Shown here piece after piece: positions 27,100 to 32,013 of a stretch of 37,032 bases of DNA. Position 1 is the stretch's first letter, and each line of letters opens with the position of its first letter. The stretch is from a virus. Taxonomy: Duplodnaviria; Heunggongvirae; Uroviricota; Caudoviricetes. The notes beneath the pieces are model-generated. The model was not told where the DNA came from, made no database searches, and saw only the letters and a list, made by a program, of their open reading frames with translations. The position numbers and the translations under genes are program-made. The stretch is taken from the IMG/VR virus record IMGVR_UViG_2700989496_000004; one strand, 5' to 3'.

Positions 27100-27864
27100 A
27101 TGAAAATGCAGACATTACCCATCGTGCCGTGGATTGGTGGCAAACGCCGCCTTGCAAAACACATTCTGCCGCTGTTTCCGGCGCATGAATGTTATGTGGA
27201 GCCGTTTTGTGGGGCAGCAGCGCTCTATTTTCTTAAGACACCCGGCAAGATCGAAGTCATCAATGATATCAACGGTGAACTGGTGAATCTGTACCGGGTG
27301 GTAAAGCATCACCTGGAAGAATTTGTCCGCCAGTTCAAATGGGCGCTGGTCAGCCGTCAGATCTACAAATGGCTGCAGATCACCCCGGAAGAAACACTGA
27401 CGGATATCCAGCGTGCGGCACGGTTCTACTACCTTCAGAAGCAGGCGTTTGGCGGCAAGGTGGCAGAGCACAGCTTCGGTACCTCCACCACATCCCCGCC
27501 ACGCTTCAACCTGCTACGTATTGAAGAAGAACTGTCAGCGGCACACCTGCGGCTTTCCAGAACAGTCATAGAACACATGGACTGGCAACAGTGCATTGAG
27601 CGTTATGATCGTCCGCACACGCTGTTCTACTGCGACCCACCGTACCTGGGTACGGAAGGCTATGGTGTGGATTTTCCTGAAGGGAACTACTCGCGGCTGG
27701 CAGAGCTGGCCCGGTGCATCAGAGGAAAAATGATAATTTCGGTGAACGACATCCCGCAGATGCGCGAGGTGTTCACTGGACTGAACATACAGACAGTGAA
27801 TATCAACTACAGTCTGGCGGGTAAACCCACGCCGCGCCGTGAACTGCTAATCTGCAACTTCTGA
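27100..27864 (+). CDS. dam: DNA N6-adenine methyltransferase (Dam-like, DPPY class)
   Basis: N-terminal WIGGKRRL and catalytic DPPY (FYCDPPYLGT). Start taken at ATGAAAATG with AAAGG upstream; the track ORF carries a 30-aa N-terminal extension. Confidence 0.85.
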   Translation: MKMQTLPIVPWIGGKRRLAKHILPLFPAHECYVEPFCGAAALYFLKTPGKIEVINDINGELVNLYRVVKHHLEEFVRQFKWALVSRQIYKWLQITPEETLTDIQRAARFYYLQKQAFGGKVAEHSFGTSTTSPPRFNLLRIEEELSAAHLRLSRTVIEHMDWQQCIERYDRPHTLFYCDPPYLGTEGYGVDFPEGNYSRLAELARCIRGKMIISVNDIPQMREVFTGLNIQTVNINYSLAGKPTPRRELLICNF

Positions 27865-27871
27865 AACAAAA

Positions 27872-27894
27872 CCGGAAAGCACAATGCTTTCCGG
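27872..27894 (-). terminator. Rho-independent terminator (repressor transcript; possibly bidirectional)
   Basis: Perfect 10-bp stem CCGGAAAGCA/TGCTTTCCGG with 3-nt loop, followed on the minus strand by TTTTGTTT. Confidence 0.65.
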
Positions 27895-27980
27895 TAAACC
27901 AAACAACTTCCACTATGTCACTGGCGATGTTTTCTGAAAGCATCCAGATCAACCACCTGTCCTTTGTGTCCGGGTCAGTA

Positions 27981-28337
27981 TCAGCCTGCGATTTTTCCTG
28001 GTTTTGGCTGAGTATAGAATCGCCCAATCTCAAGAAATGAGCGTTGTTGGTCTGGTGTCATGTCGTCAAAAGTATCTATTAGTTTTTGTTTTTCTGGGGA
28101 AATTTGATTCTGGTTTCTAGTCATACCATCTGTGCTCATTCCAGTGAGCAACCAATTTACATCAACATTAAACTCTTGATGCATCTTTAACAGAAACTCC
28201 CCTCCAGGCATCGCCTTTCCATTTTCAATCTGACTGATACCACCATTAGAAATACCTAAACGAGCTGCAAATTCTCTCTGGTTCAACCCTGCTTTCTTCC
28301 TCACAGAAATAACGCGCTCTCCTATATCTTTGCTCAT
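27981..28337 (-). CDS. XRE-family HTH repressor (CI-like immunity repressor)
   Basis: 118 aa with N-terminal HTH (GLNQREFAARLGISNGGISQIENGK). AT-rich gene (~40% GC), divergent from the early operon. Confidence 0.8.
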   Translation of the reverse strand: MSKDIGERVISVRKKAGLNQREFAARLGISNGGISQIENGKAMPGGEFLLKMHQEFNVDVNWLLTGMSTDGMTRNQNQISPEKQKLIDTFDDMTPDQQRSFLEIGRFYTQPKPGKIAG

Positions 28338-28354
28338 AAAAGTGAATCTCTATC

Positions 28355-28383
28355 TTGATATGCTCATAATTATGAGCAATAAT
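28355..28383 (+). promoter_or_regulatory. Early promoter with an 18-bp perfect palindromic operator in the spacer
   Basis: -35 TTGATA (28355-28360), 17-bp spacer, -10 AATAAT (28378-28383). Operator TGCTCATAATTATGAGCA (28361-28378) is a perfect palindrome, and a further TGCTCATAA half-site overlaps the repressor start codon (28331-28339). Confidence 0.6.
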
Positions 28384-28430
28384 CTAACACATATAAGGCA
28401 AACATCATTGCATCAACAAAGGAGACAACG

Positions 28431-28619
28431 ATGACTGCAGAACAAGTCAAAGCTCTCTTCCGCCAGCGCGGGATCACTTTCACCCGCTGGGCAGAAGAAA
28501 ACGGCTACAACCGCAATGAGGTATACCGCGTTCTCAACGGGCAGACCAAAGCCCGTTACGGTAAATCCCATGAAATCGCCGTGAAGTTGGGACTGAAATC
28601 AACAGCTCAGGCGGCCTAA
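28431..28619 (+). CDS. Small Cro/Ner-like DNA-binding protein (first early gene)
   Basis: 62 aa with AAGGAGA 5 nt upstream, positioned as cro/ner relative to the repressor. Confidence 0.6.
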   Translation: MTAEQVKALFRQRGITFTRWAEENGYNRNEVYRVLNGQTKARYGKSHEIAVKLGLKSTAQAA

Positions 28620-28671
28620 ATATTTTGAGTCTTTGTAAAAGGTTATCACATATCGCAAAAGAGGTATGCAG

Positions 28672-28980
28672 ATGAGTAAGACGAATGTTTCAAGCTCCGG
28701 CAGTCGCATCCTCCGGGTACTCAAAGCGCTGCGCGGTCATGCCCTGAACGGTATTTCTAACGGTGAACTGGCGACAGCACTGCACGAGTCACCGGCAAAC
28801 ATCAACCGGGCACTCAACACCCTCATTGAAGAAGGGCTGGCTCTGAAACTGGAGAACGGACGTTTTGCACCGGGCATCCAGTTACTGCAGATCGCCATGG
28901 CCCACAGTAACGAGATGGCACGTGCACAGGATCGTATTAACGAAATTAACCAACGTGTCATTTCAGGTAGTCGTTTGTAA
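28672..28980 (+). CDS. Putative winged-helix DNA-binding protein
   Basis: About 102 aa, start at the second ATG, which has better spacing from AAGAGG. Sequence ILRVLKALRGHALNGISNGELATALHESPANINRALNTLIEEGLA is wHTH-like. Confidence 0.5.
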   Translation: MSKTNVSSSGSRILRVLKALRGHALNGISNGELATALHESPANINRALNTLIEEGLALKLENGRFAPGIQLLQIAMAHSNEMARAQDRINEINQRVISGSRL

Positions 28981-28990
28981 GGAGTAATCA

Positions 28991-29911
28991 ATGGGACGTA
29001 CCAAATCACCGATTAACACTGAACTGAACGCCGATGTACCGCTGTCGGATGATCTCAACGTCAGCCTGAATGCCATGACACAGCATCGCATGGAGATCAT
29101 GCAGCAGTTTGGTGATGGACTGCCTTATGAACGTGAACGCATCGTTCACGAAGCACGTTTTTATATGGCGCAGAGTGCTGAATCTATGTTGGAAGCGGGT
29201 AAGCGGCTGATCATCTTAAAAGAAAATGAACCGCATGGTGATTTCACAAATATTCTGGAAAACGACCTCGGATTAGCACCACAGGTAGCTCGTCGCATGA
29301 TGCAGGCCAGCGTGAAATTTCTCGGCAATGGAGATGAACAGCCAAAACGCTCAGCGCTGAGCGTTTTGGGAAAAACCAAGTTATATGAACTGATGGTTCT
29401 GGATGACGAAGAACTCGACGCATTAGCTGATGGTGGAACCGTCGCCGGTGCAACGCTTGATGATATTGATCGCATGACCAGCCGCGAACTGAAGGCCGCC
29501 CTGCGTGAAGCGCGCGAAACCAACGCAGCTCAGCAACAGGTGCTTGCCGGAAAGGACGAAAAAATCAACGAACTGGCCACAAAACTGGAGAAGAAATCGC
29601 GCCTGCAACCTCCGCCGCCAGACGAAGAACTGAAAAAATTGCGGGCGGAAGTGACGGCATTAGCGGTTGAGGCCGAATCGGCTATCGCCGTCCGGCTGTC
29701 CAGTGTTTTTGAGACCCTGTGTGAATACTGCACCAAAAACATGATCGATACCCCCAGAGATTTCATGGCCGGTCTGGTCTGCCAGATTGAACGCAGTGTT
29801 CATGCATTACGTGAGACGTTTGACCTTGAGGCCGCTCCATCGGGTAACGATGCCCCCGCCTGGCTGACCGAACCGGAACCTGAAATCAACCGACCGGAGG
29901 ATATGCAGTAA
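28991..29911 (+). CDS. Hypothetical early protein
   Basis: 306 aa, acidic and helical, in the early operon. Confidence 0.5.
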   Translation: MGRTKSPINTELNADVPLSDDLNVSLNAMTQHRMEIMQQFGDGLPYERERIVHEARFYMAQSAESMLEAGKRLIILKENEPHGDFTNILENDLGLAPQVARRMMQASVKFLGNGDEQPKRSALSVLGKTKLYELMVLDDEELDALADGGTVAGATLDDIDRMTSRELKAALREARETNAAQQQVLAGKDEKINELATKLEKKSRLQPPPPDEELKKLRAEVTALAVEAESAIAVRLSSVFETLCEYCTKNMIDTPRDFMAGLVCQIERSVHALRETFDLEAAPSGNDAPAWLTEPEPEINRPEDMQ

Positions 29912-30243: not shown

Positions 30244-32013
30244 ATGACCCCGGCACTGACTGAAAAACTGGTTGAAACAGCCCGCGCGGCACGTGACGCG
30301 GGGCATGGTAAACGCGGTGCAATATACGACGCTGCCTGTGCTGAACTTGGCATGTCCCGCGCCACTCTGCTGCGCAGGCTGAAGGAGGTATCTGTGACTG
30401 ATAAACGCAAAAAACGCGCCGATGCCGGGCGCAGCGCCCTGACCCGCGACGAAGCCGCGCTGATATCTGCCACACTGCGTGAGGCCACCCGCAAGAACGG
30501 TAAGCGTCTCTATTCCATCGCAGATGCAGTGGAAACCCTGCGGGCTAACGGCTTTATCACCGCAGGCAGAACAGATGAAACCACCAGTGAGTTTTTCCCG
30601 TTGTCTGAAGATGCCATCAGCCGTGCTCTGCGTAACTATGGCCTGCACCCGGAACAACTGGATGCCCCTGCACCACATACCGAAGTGGCCAGTCTGCATC
30701 CCAATCATGTCTGGCAGATTGACGCCTCACTCTGCACGCTTTACTACCTGAGCAATGGACATAAAGGGCTGCAGGTGATGGACAGCGCGAAGTTCTACAA
30801 GAACAAGCCCGCTAACCTTGCCCGTATCGCCAGTGACCGCGTGTGGAGTTACGAGATTACCGACCATGCCAGCGGCTGGATTTACGTTGAGTATGTGACG
30901 GGCGCGGAATCAGGTGAGAACCTGTGTTCTGTGCTTATCAACGCCATGCAGGAGCGTGGCGGCGCAGACGTGCTGCACGGCGTGCCGAAAATACTCTATC
31001 TCGACCCCGGCTCGGCAAACACCGCGGGTATGACGAAAAACATGTGCCGCTCACTGGGCATCGACCTGATAGCGCACAAGCCGCATAACGCCCGCGCCAC
31101 CGGACAGGTGGAAAAGGCGCGTGACATTATCGAACGCAAGCTGGAGCCGGGTCTGAAGTTCCGGCCGGTTCACAGTCTGGAAGAACTCAACGCGCTGGCC
31201 GCGAAATGGCGCAGCCACTTTAACGCCACGGCTGTTCACAGCCGCCACGGTAAAACCCGCACGGATATCTGGCTGAAGATTACTGCTGAGCAGCTGAAAA
31301 AAGCGCCTTCCGTTGAGGTATGTCGTGAACTGGCTGTGGCGGCACCAGAACTCCGCAAAGTCACGCCAAAACTTCGTGTCTCGTTCCGGGGCACTGAATT
31401 TGACGTATCAACGGTACCGGGCGTACTGGTTGGTGAAAAACTGATGATTACCCGTAACCCATGGCGCAGCGATGTGGCACAGGTGGTTCTGACCGGTGAG
31501 GACGGCCACGAGACGTTCTTCCTGGTCGAAGAGGTCAGAAAGAACGAGTTTGGCTTTGCTGAAGGCGCGGCGGTATTTGGCGAAAGTTACAAAGCCCTGC
31601 CGGAAACCCCGGCACAGATGGCGGCAAAAGAAACCGAAGCGCTGGTTACCGGTACAGACAACGCCGCAGATGCAGCCGCCGCACGCAAGGCGAAGGCGCT
31701 GCCGTTCGGCGGGCGGCTTGACCCGTATAAACATATCGACGACACCACACTTCCGGCCTATATGCCGAAGCGTGGTCAGGCCTCTGACGTACGCGGGCCG
31801 CGCACTGAACAACGTCCCATGACTCATGTGGAGGCCGCGAAAGCCCTGCGCGATAAGTTCAGCGCCGACGGCCTTACCTGGACGCCGGAACATTACCGCC
31901 AGTTAACGGCACAGTACCCGGACGGCGTACCGGAAGCCGCACTGGATGAAGTCATGGCCACGCTGACCACACCGGCCCGCAGCAGTGTTATCAGCATTGT
32001 TAACGGCAACTGA
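30244..32013 (+). CDS. DDE transposase (Mu A-like)
   Basis: 589 aa with candidate DDE residues in WQIDAS, LYLDPGS and GQVEKARD, directly upstream of the MuB-like ATPase. Confidence 0.8.
   Translation: MTPALTEKLVETARAARDAGHGKRGAIYDAACAELGMSRATLLRRLKEVSVTDKRKKRADAGRSALTRDEAALISATLREATRKNGKRLYSIADAVETLRANGFITAGRTDETTSEFFPLSEDAISRALRNYGLHPEQLDAPAPHTEVASLHPNHVWQIDASLCTLYYLSNGHKGLQVMDSAKFYKNKPANLARIASDRVWSYEITDHASGWIYVEYVTGAESGENLCSVLINAMQERGGADVLHGVPKILYLDPGSANTAGMTKNMCRSLGIDLIAHKPHNARATGQVEKARDIIERKLEPGLKFRPVHSLEELNALAAKWRSHFNATAVHSRHGKTRTDIWLKITAEQLKKAPSVEVCRELAVAAPELRKVTPKLRVSFRGTEFDVSTVPGVLVGEKLMITRNPWRSDVAQVVLTGEDGHETFFLVEEVRKNEFGFAEGAAVFGESYKALPETPAQMAAKETEALVTGTDNAADAAAARKAKALPFGGRLDPYKHIDDTTLPAYMPKRGQASDVRGPRTEQRPMTHVEAAKALRDKFSADGLTWTPEHYRQLTAQYPDGVPEAALDEVMATLTTPARSSVISIVNGN

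Follow-up and report, generated by a model that had tools for sequence, protein, structure and literature searches.

We analysed a 37,032-nucleotide stretch of viral DNA (IMG/VR record IMGVR_UViG_2700989496_000004; hereafter the window, with position 1 as its first letter), which is a BcepMu-like transposable prophage of Escherichia coli, and focused on the region where a small repressor gene diverges from the early operon. Minus-strand late genes occupy positions ~1-25,500; next comes a small accessory region that encodes a D12-class adenine methylase. The repressor region lies between the accessory region and the early genes, placing it in the genome interior between the late and early arms. 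The rightward early operon consists, in order, of a gp16/Ner-like gene (from 28431) and genes for an IclR-like helix-turn-helix (HTH) protein, a DUF3102 protein, a DDE (rve) transposase and an AAA+ MuB-like protein; we found the rve domain in the open reading frame (ORF) at 30244-32013. Hence, the locus has the organisation of a BcepMu/B3-like immunity region, with a repressor gene divergent from a gp16-family gene that heads an operon encoding a DDE transposase and a MuB-like protein. Escherichia phage PhiKM, classed as Bcepmuvirus and deposited as a phage of a uropathogenic strain, matches a 901-bp segment across it (27800-28700) at 100% identity. The same segment is at least 99% identical in 391 of 5,426 complete E. 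coli genomes (~7%), several of the listed carriers being labelled sequence type 131 (ST131) or coming from human clinical samples. The features of the region are as follows.

27871-27895, minus strand: terminator-like hairpin, an 11-bp stem followed by TTTGTTT (terminator scan and inverted repeat, 100% complementary)
27981-28337, minus strand: repressor gene, 118 amino acids (ORF)
~28100-28378: putative immunity-specificity cassette, ~280 bp, holding the DNA-binding-domain codons, O3, the 5' untranslated region and start with O2, the -35 element and O1
28133-28150: O3, predicted second full consensus operator, TGCTCAttccagTGAGCA, across codons L63-T69 (LLTGMST) at the end of the HTH domain
28331-28348: O2, candidate weak or asymmetric operator, TGCTCAtaaaagTGAatc, left arm consensus, right arm 3/6
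28355-28360, plus strand: -35 element TTGATA of the predicted early promoter Pe (sigma-70 scan)
28361-28378: O1, predicted main operator, TGCTCATAATTATGAGCA, an 18-bp perfect palindrome
28378-28383, plus strand: -10 element AATAAT of Pe (sigma-70 scan), where the right-hand recombination boundary of the putative cassette falls
28381-28389, minus strand: candidate proximal leftward promoter, extended -10 TGT-TAGATT (score 8), overlapping the Pe -10 on the other strand
28384-28430, plus strand: predicted early-transcript leader with Shine-Dalgarno sequence AAGGAG (28419-28424), common to several immunity types
28431-28619, plus strand: first early gene, Ner-like/BcepMu gp16 family, 62 amino acids (TIGR04111, 97.4 bits against a cut-off of 34; phrog_925)

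The original prediction, made from the letters of the window alone, was that an 18-bp perfect palindrome between a near-consensus -35 and -10 is the repressor's operator in the rightward early promoter. The anatomy is as described: TTGATA and AATAAT are separated by 17 bp, and O1 fills this spacer, its last A doubling as the first base of the -10 element (1-bp overlap). Pe is the sole match to the sigma-70 consensus at 10 or more of 12 positions on either strand of the window, and the sole match in a promoter scan of 27700-28800. In the 37 kb, only O1 and one other palindrome are perfect over arms of 9 bp or more. Homologues whose repressors are 57-78% identical to that of the window (Klebsiella, Citrobacter, Serratia, Pluralibacter and Symbiopectobacterium) keep the O1 arms, with centres that drift (TAATTA, AAATAA, TTATTG, TAATAA, CATTAA, TTTAAA). 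Since two own-type homologues change the outermost arm base, we define the core as GCTCA-N6-TGAGC. The position of Pe and its spacing of 16-18 bp are kept in all relatives, in Pseudomonas phage Fc02 and in BcepMu. The Pe transcript is predicted to begin at ~28389-28391.

We compared the window with relatives, taken from E. coli genomes and from viral and metagenomic contigs, that have conserved flanks and a replaced middle (loci designated by L numbers). Read in the orientation of the window, their promoters fall into six immunity types, given here as -35 element, spacer and -10 region.

Window: TTGATA, TGCTCATAATTATGAGCA, ATAATC; repeat TGCTCA-N6-TGAGCA
L004/L005/L024/L044: TTTACA, TATCCCATTATTGGGATA, ATAATC; repeat TATCCCA-N4-TGGGATA
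L003/L006: TTGACT, GGTGAGGAAATCTGCACC, ATAATC
L007-L009: TTGACA, ATGAGAACAATGGTTCTC, ATAATC
L021-L023: TTGCTC, TGTCTAAATTTTTAGACA, ATAATC
L045: TTGATC, TATACACGAATGTGTGTA, TAATC

Thus, a single backbone carries six types, each of which pairs a distinct inverted repeat in this spacer with a distinct repressor N-terminal domain; further repeats among them are ATGAGAAC-N4-GTTCTCAT, TGTCTAAA-NN-TTTAGACA and TATACAC-N6-GTGTATA. An (A/C)ATAATC -10 region is common to the five E. coli immunity types, and the ner leader is likewise retained. The same association is seen outside this backbone. Locus L047 belongs to an unrelated, ner-less phage of the pRha type whose repressor has a different C-terminal domain; it encodes the same DNA-binding domain (57% identity) beside the promoter sequence TTGACT followed by TGCTCATTTAAATGAGCA. 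Loci from Herbaspirillum (L028-L038), collected in a genome scan, differ in recognition helix and context and were uninformative. The comparison of the six types supports the proposal that the repressor's operator lies in the spacer of the rightward early promoter, and, on this sequence evidence, we consider that O1 is very probably the operator of Pe.

A second full consensus site, absent from the earlier prediction, lies inside the repressor gene. Apart from O1 and O3, the window contains no exact TGCTCA-N6-TGAGCA site. The two are 228 bp apart, and the distance is always 227-228 bp in homologues. We examined O3 in 10 homologous genes, in which DNA identity between pairs has a median of 69% and 10% of third codon positions do not vary. 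None of the arm positions varies (12/12 invariant), making O3 the only fully invariant 6-N6-6 layout of the 336 in the repressor gene. All four third-position bases within the arms are invariant, an outcome with a probability of ~1e-4 if positions were independent, an assumption that related sequences violate. Substitutions of T to S, M to V and T to N/S/M leave the arms intact, and the six-base centre varies synonymously (ACT/ACA/ACG/ACC/AGT; GGA/GGG/GGT). Locus L027, which encodes the same helix 3 in another context and lacks O1, has two arm mismatches at the position of O3, indicating that coding constraint alone does not maintain the site. With two consensus sites 228 bp apart and both under selection, we read O3 as an auxiliary operator, acting perhaps through looping or cooperative occupancy; it is probably functional. 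The AlphaFold2 (AF2) monomer of the repressor shows a two-helix C-terminal domain only. By analogy with the 434 and P22 c2 repressors, the AT-rich centre of O1 should confer a higher affinity than the G/C-containing centre of O3. O3 would be a clean natural case of a regulatory site kept inside coding sequence, although the principle is textbook and auxiliary operators within genes are an established idea.

The third site lies at the start of the repressor gene, where a further half-site suggestive of autoregulation had been proposed. A copy of TGCTCATAA is indeed present at 28331-28339, where it covers the repressor start codon (CAT at 28335-28337 in plus-strand letters); there are three exact copies of this sequence, all within 48 bp. 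O2, of which this half-site is the left arm, is 30 bp from O1 and has a degenerate right arm, TGAATC. The TGCTCA of O2 is kept in all homologues, including L047, where a TGCTCAC half-site lies over a GTG start codon. In the window type, Ser2 is encoded by AGC throughout, against TCA or TCC in other types. In all six types, an extra copy of one O1 arm (at least 6/7 match) lies to the left of O1; the offset is -29/-30 in the window, L045 and L022 and -20/-21 in L004, L006 and L007; in L045 it likewise overlaps the start codon. The shuffle P value for the extra arm ranges from 0.009 to 0.29 per type, giving ~7e-4 when combined by Fisher's method (by hand). This recurrence supports a functional weak site, most simply one for cooperative binding and negative autoregulation. 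The evidence for O2 is weaker than that for O1 and O3, and we put the chances of its being functional at even.

The repressor is an XRE-type HTH protein, as had been predicted: it matches HTH_3 (PF01381) over residues 12-63 at 55.8 bits against a cut-off of 23. In sequence searches it also matched the 434 repressor (E=3e-8) and P22 c2. It aligns with RepC of phage Fc02, a validated repressor of this phage group, over 100% of the query (31% identity, E=1e-10). The AF2 model (mean predicted local distance difference test score, pLDDT, 80.5) consists of a five-helix HTH domain (residues 5-65, pLDDT >90), a disordered linker (66-80) and two helices (81-91 and 95-109), residues 81-109 being encoded at 28011-28097. 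The HTH fold superposes on those of 434 and P22 c2 at 1.2-1.6 Å with 33-42% identity (root-mean-square deviation, rmsd, 1.2 Å for P22 c2). A Foldseek search with the whole chain gave SinR, the Phi106 repressor bound to AimX, and DdrO among the neighbours, with poor global superposition. The chain resembles SinR and the Phi106 repressor in combining an HTH with a helical C-terminal domain, but the overall superposition on SinR (rmsd 10.6 Å) does not support membership of that family. Nor does the score for the RstR family (NF041951), 40.4 bits against a cut-off of 80, support membership there. We found no Peptidase_S24 match in the repressor, so it is not of the self-cleaving lambda CI/LexA type and RecA-stimulated self-cleavage is not expected.

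Two properties of the repressor gene had been taken as signs of a swapped immunity module. The repressor has no Mu-type domain at E<=0.01 and matches XRE-type HTH models only, so the statement that it is not a Mu c-type repressor stands. An XRE repressor divergent from a gp16/Ner-like gene is, however, normal in BcepMu/B3-like phages and hence no sign of a swap. Similarly, the gene is AT-rich: its GC content is 40.9%, compared with 54.9% over the window, which ranks it within the lowest 0.6% of 357-nucleotide windows, and its third-codon-position GC content is 35% against 60-63% in neighbouring genes. Five other repressor alleles are also AT-rich (42-48% GC), as is the C-terminal part of the window allele that is common to the types (40.1% GC). 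AT-richness is therefore a property of the gene family rather than a mark of exchange.

Evidence for exchange comes instead from alignment. We calculated sliding identity in 40-nucleotide bins between the window and the heteroimmune E. coli loci L003, L004, L005 and L022. To the left of ~28100, identity is 78-100% in most bins, with single bins at 62-65%; from ~28100 to 28380 it is 32-68%; and in the 28380-28419 bin it returns to 85-95%. Further right it is 92-100% in L003 only, and L004, L005 and L022 remain at 62-88% until ~28660. A swapped module is thus supported in the form of a divergent segment (~28100-28378) between conserved flanks, and not in the form of the whole repressor gene, because the divergent segment ends inside the gene. 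O3 lies just inside its left edge. The C-terminal ~40 residues (..EKQKLxDxFDxMTPEQxRxxLExG..QPKP) are common to at least five of the six types, the exception being L007-L009, whose repressor C-terminus has no obvious similarity. Mosaic immunity regions are an established idea. We suggest, tentatively, and as a reading that we hold to be less probable than its converse, that these ~280 bp form a self-contained cassette, in which the DNA-binding-domain codons are flanked by the domain's own operators (O3 where domain and linker meet, O1 and O2 at the promoter), such that one recombination event would move the DNA-binding domain together with all of its DNA targets, and that the two-helix domain is a shared oligomerisation or antirepressor-docking module. 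If so, heteroimmune relatives could be induced, or could cross-talk, through one shared signal.

Taken together, these features suggest a lysis-lysogeny switch. We propose that a repressor dimer would bind O1 and occupy the whole -35/-10 spacer; since O1 fills the 17-bp spacer of Pe, bound repressor would exclude RNA polymerase, silencing the rightward early operon (genes for the Ner-like protein, the IclR-like protein, the DUF3102 protein, the DDE transposase and the MuB-like ATPase). O2, over the repressor's ribosome-binding site and start, and O3 would most likely raise the occupancy of O1 by cooperativity or looping, and would provide negative autoregulation that limits repressor synthesis. 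Once Pe had fired, the Ner-like protein would act on the conserved leader, a step suggested by Mu and by the co-inheritance of leader and ner. Given that the repressor has no S24 domain, induction would proceed through an antirepressor or proteolysis. The specificity of immunity would lie in the ~280-bp cassette, and exchange of the cassette between related phages would occur by recombination in the conserved -10/ner leader on one side and in the codons of the linker and C-terminal domain on the other. We estimate the probability that the region is a lysis-lysogeny switch that works in this way at roughly 80%.

Several observations weigh against this model. Of 300 composition-preserving shuffles, 41 gave a palindrome like O1, so the O1 palindrome alone is suggestive rather than decisive, and it is the comparative data that carry the case. 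In L027, an identical helix-3 sequence occurs with no such operator nearby. The left arm of O2 is partly forced by the Met-Ser coding, and its right arm matches at only 3/6 positions. We found no O3-like site at three or fewer arm mismatches in L004/L005 or L007/L008, so looping would be no general requirement of the design. The O1-O3 distance of 227-228 bp corresponds to 21.7 turns of 10.5 bp, which is non-integral, and we searched the stretch from O1 to O3 for an integration host factor (IHF) consensus and found none. Candidates for the repressor's own promoter score only 8 on a loose scale. One alternative is that O1 is real and the other two sites are by-products of coding, O3 of the WLLTG(M/V)S peptide and codon preference and O2 of the Met-Ser start, leaving a single-operator switch with neither looping nor operator-mediated autoregulation. 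Both sites do overlap coding sequence, the other immunity types searched have no recognisable O3, and the reading frame would in any case set the 227/228-bp spacing. This explanation nevertheless sits poorly with four invariant third positions in the O3 arms among 10 sequences in which 90% of third positions vary, with arms that outlast amino-acid changes on both sides while the synonymous centre drifts, and with the loss of the site in L027, which has the same peptide region and no O1. For O2, it would leave unexplained the constant AGC at Ser2 in the window type (TCA/TCC elsewhere), the retention of the half-site with a GTG start, and the recurrence of the extra arm copy in all six types. 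We consider the by-product explanation unlikely.

The palindromes might also be something other than sites for the XRE repressor. In Mu, Ner binds between divergent promoters, and O1 lies immediately upstream of ner, as would suit a site for the Ner-like protein (as an analogue of Cro) or for another early protein. Ner is, however, 100% identical in the window and L003, the spacers of which are unrelated, and one RefSeq accession for the IclR-like protein is shared by L003, L004 and L005, which represent two immunity types. Early proteins that stay constant across types in this way are excluded as specific binders, and the palindrome is thereby linked to the DNA-binding domain of the repressor: it co-varies with the repressor N-terminal domain only, and follows that domain into the ner-less phage L047. 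An early-protein site is therefore very improbable. Alternatively, the palindromes could be hairpins, either an RNA stem in the 5' untranslated region of the repressor transcript or a DNA cruciform, since dyad symmetry is kept across types while the sequence changes, as a structural element would show. Within a type, however, the arm sequence itself is invariant, beyond what pairing would demand, and it recurs at O3 and as an unpaired half-site at O2. The centre is free to change and in many cases lacks self-complementarity, O1 offers a short, AT-rich stem, and the type 3 spacer is only a 5/7 dyad. An Rfam scan of 27500-29500 returned nothing at E<=1, so that no family match favours a hairpin. 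We regard this alternative, too, as having very little chance of being correct, and favour binding of the XRE repressor to its operators.

The closest described systems share this layout. In Fc02 and BcepMu (gp17/gp16), the gene for a small XRE repressor (BcepMu gp17 is annotated as cro/cI type) diverges from a gp16/Ner-like first early gene, downstream of which lie the transposase genes. The role of Fc02 RepC as a repressor was established with a temperature-sensitive mutant (G64E, just past the last helix of the HTH motif), which derepresses the early promoter pE, and with RNA sequencing (PMC9936078). Ner is encoded by the first early gene of pE, and two promoters serve repc, the distal pC1 and a pC2 that overlaps pE (PMC9936078). 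That study describes no operators (PMC9936078). In the Fc02 sequence, we observe a 6-N6-6 palindrome, TGGGAC-N6-GTCCCA, in the spacer of a promoter with a TTGACT -35, plus an extra arm nearby, as in the window. Fc02 differs in its host (Pseudomonas, B3-like) and in its operator sequence, and, set against Fc02 and BcepMu, the intragenic O3 and the domain-level exchange of the cassette are seen here for the enterobacterial group only.

More distant systems differ in instructive ways. P22 operators are 18-bp dyads. The 434 and P22 c2 repressors have the same DNA-binding-domain fold as the window repressor and, as predicted for it, bind short dyads whose outer arms are conserved and whose centre is variable and not contacted; in place of their S24 self-cleavage and oligomerisation domain, the window repressor has a two-helix C-terminal domain of ~40 amino acids, and in place of three tandem operators over two promoters, a single strong predicted operator in the promoter spacer. 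The switch functionally parallels that of Mu c/Pe-Pc/Ner, with a repressor gene read leftward, an early operon read rightward from ner onwards, several operators and possible looping. Its repressor is unrelated, being an HTH_3 protein, whereas Mu c has a Mu-type winged helix shared with MuA; we found no IHF consensus between O1 and O3, and the region is interior rather than at the left end. Operators analogous to O3 are lac O2 in lacZ, gal OI in galE and OD of TP901-1 CI, in each of which a gene contains a consensus operator, kept by selection in addition to the coding constraint, a few hundred bp away from the operator near the promoter. The putative auxiliary site of the window differs in that the gene holding it is that of the repressor itself, where the DNA-binding-domain codons end, and in that looping is only proposed. 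Finally, RstR/ig-2 of CTXphi likewise involves a small XRE repressor of ~110 amino acids without a protease domain, the variants of which differ in both the repressor and the adjacent operator region.

The architecture is thus normal for BcepMu/B3-like transposable phages, and an operator in a promoter spacer is an established idea. It is well supported that this is a switch of an ordinary kind with operators not previously described for the enterobacterial group in the searchable literature: our search of that literature found no account of operators in the enterobacterial BcepMu-like group, and literature on PhiKM and BcepMu-like prophages in ST131 gave no account of the immunity region. The conserved intragenic operator and the domain-level cassette are modestly interesting features. 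The operator, early promoter and specificity cassette together offer a handle for predicting superinfection immunity groups from sequence, and knowledge of the switch would help in building inducible or heteroimmune derivatives and in repairing annotation where, as in the PhiKM record, the repressor gene is lacking. That GenBank record (PQ738613) has instead a 41-amino-acid hypothetical plus-strand ORF (window positions 27915-28040), and RefSeq genomes do annotate the 118-amino-acid HTH repressor (WP_000031013). Among the relatives, the RefSeq repressor of L003 (positions 780-1238; E. coli 83972; WP_224154089, 152 amino acids) begins inside ner, and its L006 orthologue starts MIGLRIKE (112 amino acids). 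The 153-amino-acid repressor ORF of the L007 type (L007-L009, 1041-1502) starts inside its own operator palindrome. The RefSeq starts of the L003 and L007-type repressors look over-extended.

We identified several candidates for the promoter of the repressor gene. The proximal TGT-TAGATT overlaps the -10 element of Pe, analogous to the overlap of pC2 and pE in Fc02; it is kept in all types, a conservation explicable by Pe itself. Another candidate is CTTATA-17-CATAAT, ending at 28369. For a distal promoter of the Fc02 pC1 type, the window has only a weak candidate, an extended -10 (ATGGCA-16-TG-n-GATCAT) at 29049-29076 (minus strand), immediately past the IclR-like gene. It is placed much as pC1 is in Fc02, and it would read antisense through the first early genes. 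The repressor transcript would be expected to begin at ~28374 from a proximal promoter, or beyond 28980 from a distal one. We rejected TTGATG-17-TATGTG (28416-28388, minus strand) as the repressor promoter, its -10 turning into TGTGTG in homologues. The terminator-like hairpin lies ~86 nucleotides downstream of the repressor stop codon and is likely to form the 3' end of the repressor transcript.

The Ner-like protein has homologues in B3-like, Ralstonia and Burkholderia transposable phages. Since the leader upstream of its gene is common to several immunity types, it is co-inherited with ner, and it probably holds the binding site of the Ner-like protein. Two similar motifs, CTAACACATATAA (28384-28396) and TTATCACATATCG (28643-28655), share the core A[A/T]CACATAT and lie just downstream of the Pe -10 element and in the spacer between ner and the next gene, respectively; a related TCACAC follows the -10 element in Fc02 and BcepMu. 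This motif could be a binding site for the Ner-like protein or another early regulator. In L041 (859-1407), L045 (594-1142) and also L024, a gene for a 182-amino-acid Mor-domain protein (PF08765) lies between the repressor gene and ner and uses the same promoter, leader and Shine-Dalgarno sequence (...AAGGAGACAATCATGCTT). Its reuse suggests that the leader is a portable expression module for whichever gene heads the early operon.

We made two further observations. The heteroimmune relative L006 (NZ_CP132021.1, E. coli JCH8249) was deposited as a circular 40,540-bp 'plasmid', which could be an excised or replicating form of the phage or an assembly artefact. The longest perfect palindrome in the window, of 28 bp (CCAAAACGCTCAGCGCTGAGCGTTTTGG, 29342-29369), lies inside the DUF3102 gene (28991-29911, plus strand), and in L006-L008 it is likewise within an annotated DUF3102 gene. 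Relatives retain a perfect palindrome of 24-28 bp with changes on both arms: CCAAATGTGCCAACGTTGGCACATTTGG in L007, CAAAACGCTCAACGTTGAGCGTTTTG in L008 and L044, CAAAACGGCAAGCGCTTGCCGTTTTG in L020, CCAAAAGCGACAACGTTGTCGCTTTTGG in L024 and AAAAGCGAAAACGTTTTCGCTTTT in L025. It looks like either a co-evolving site for a dimeric protein within a gene, similar to parS, or a hairpin.

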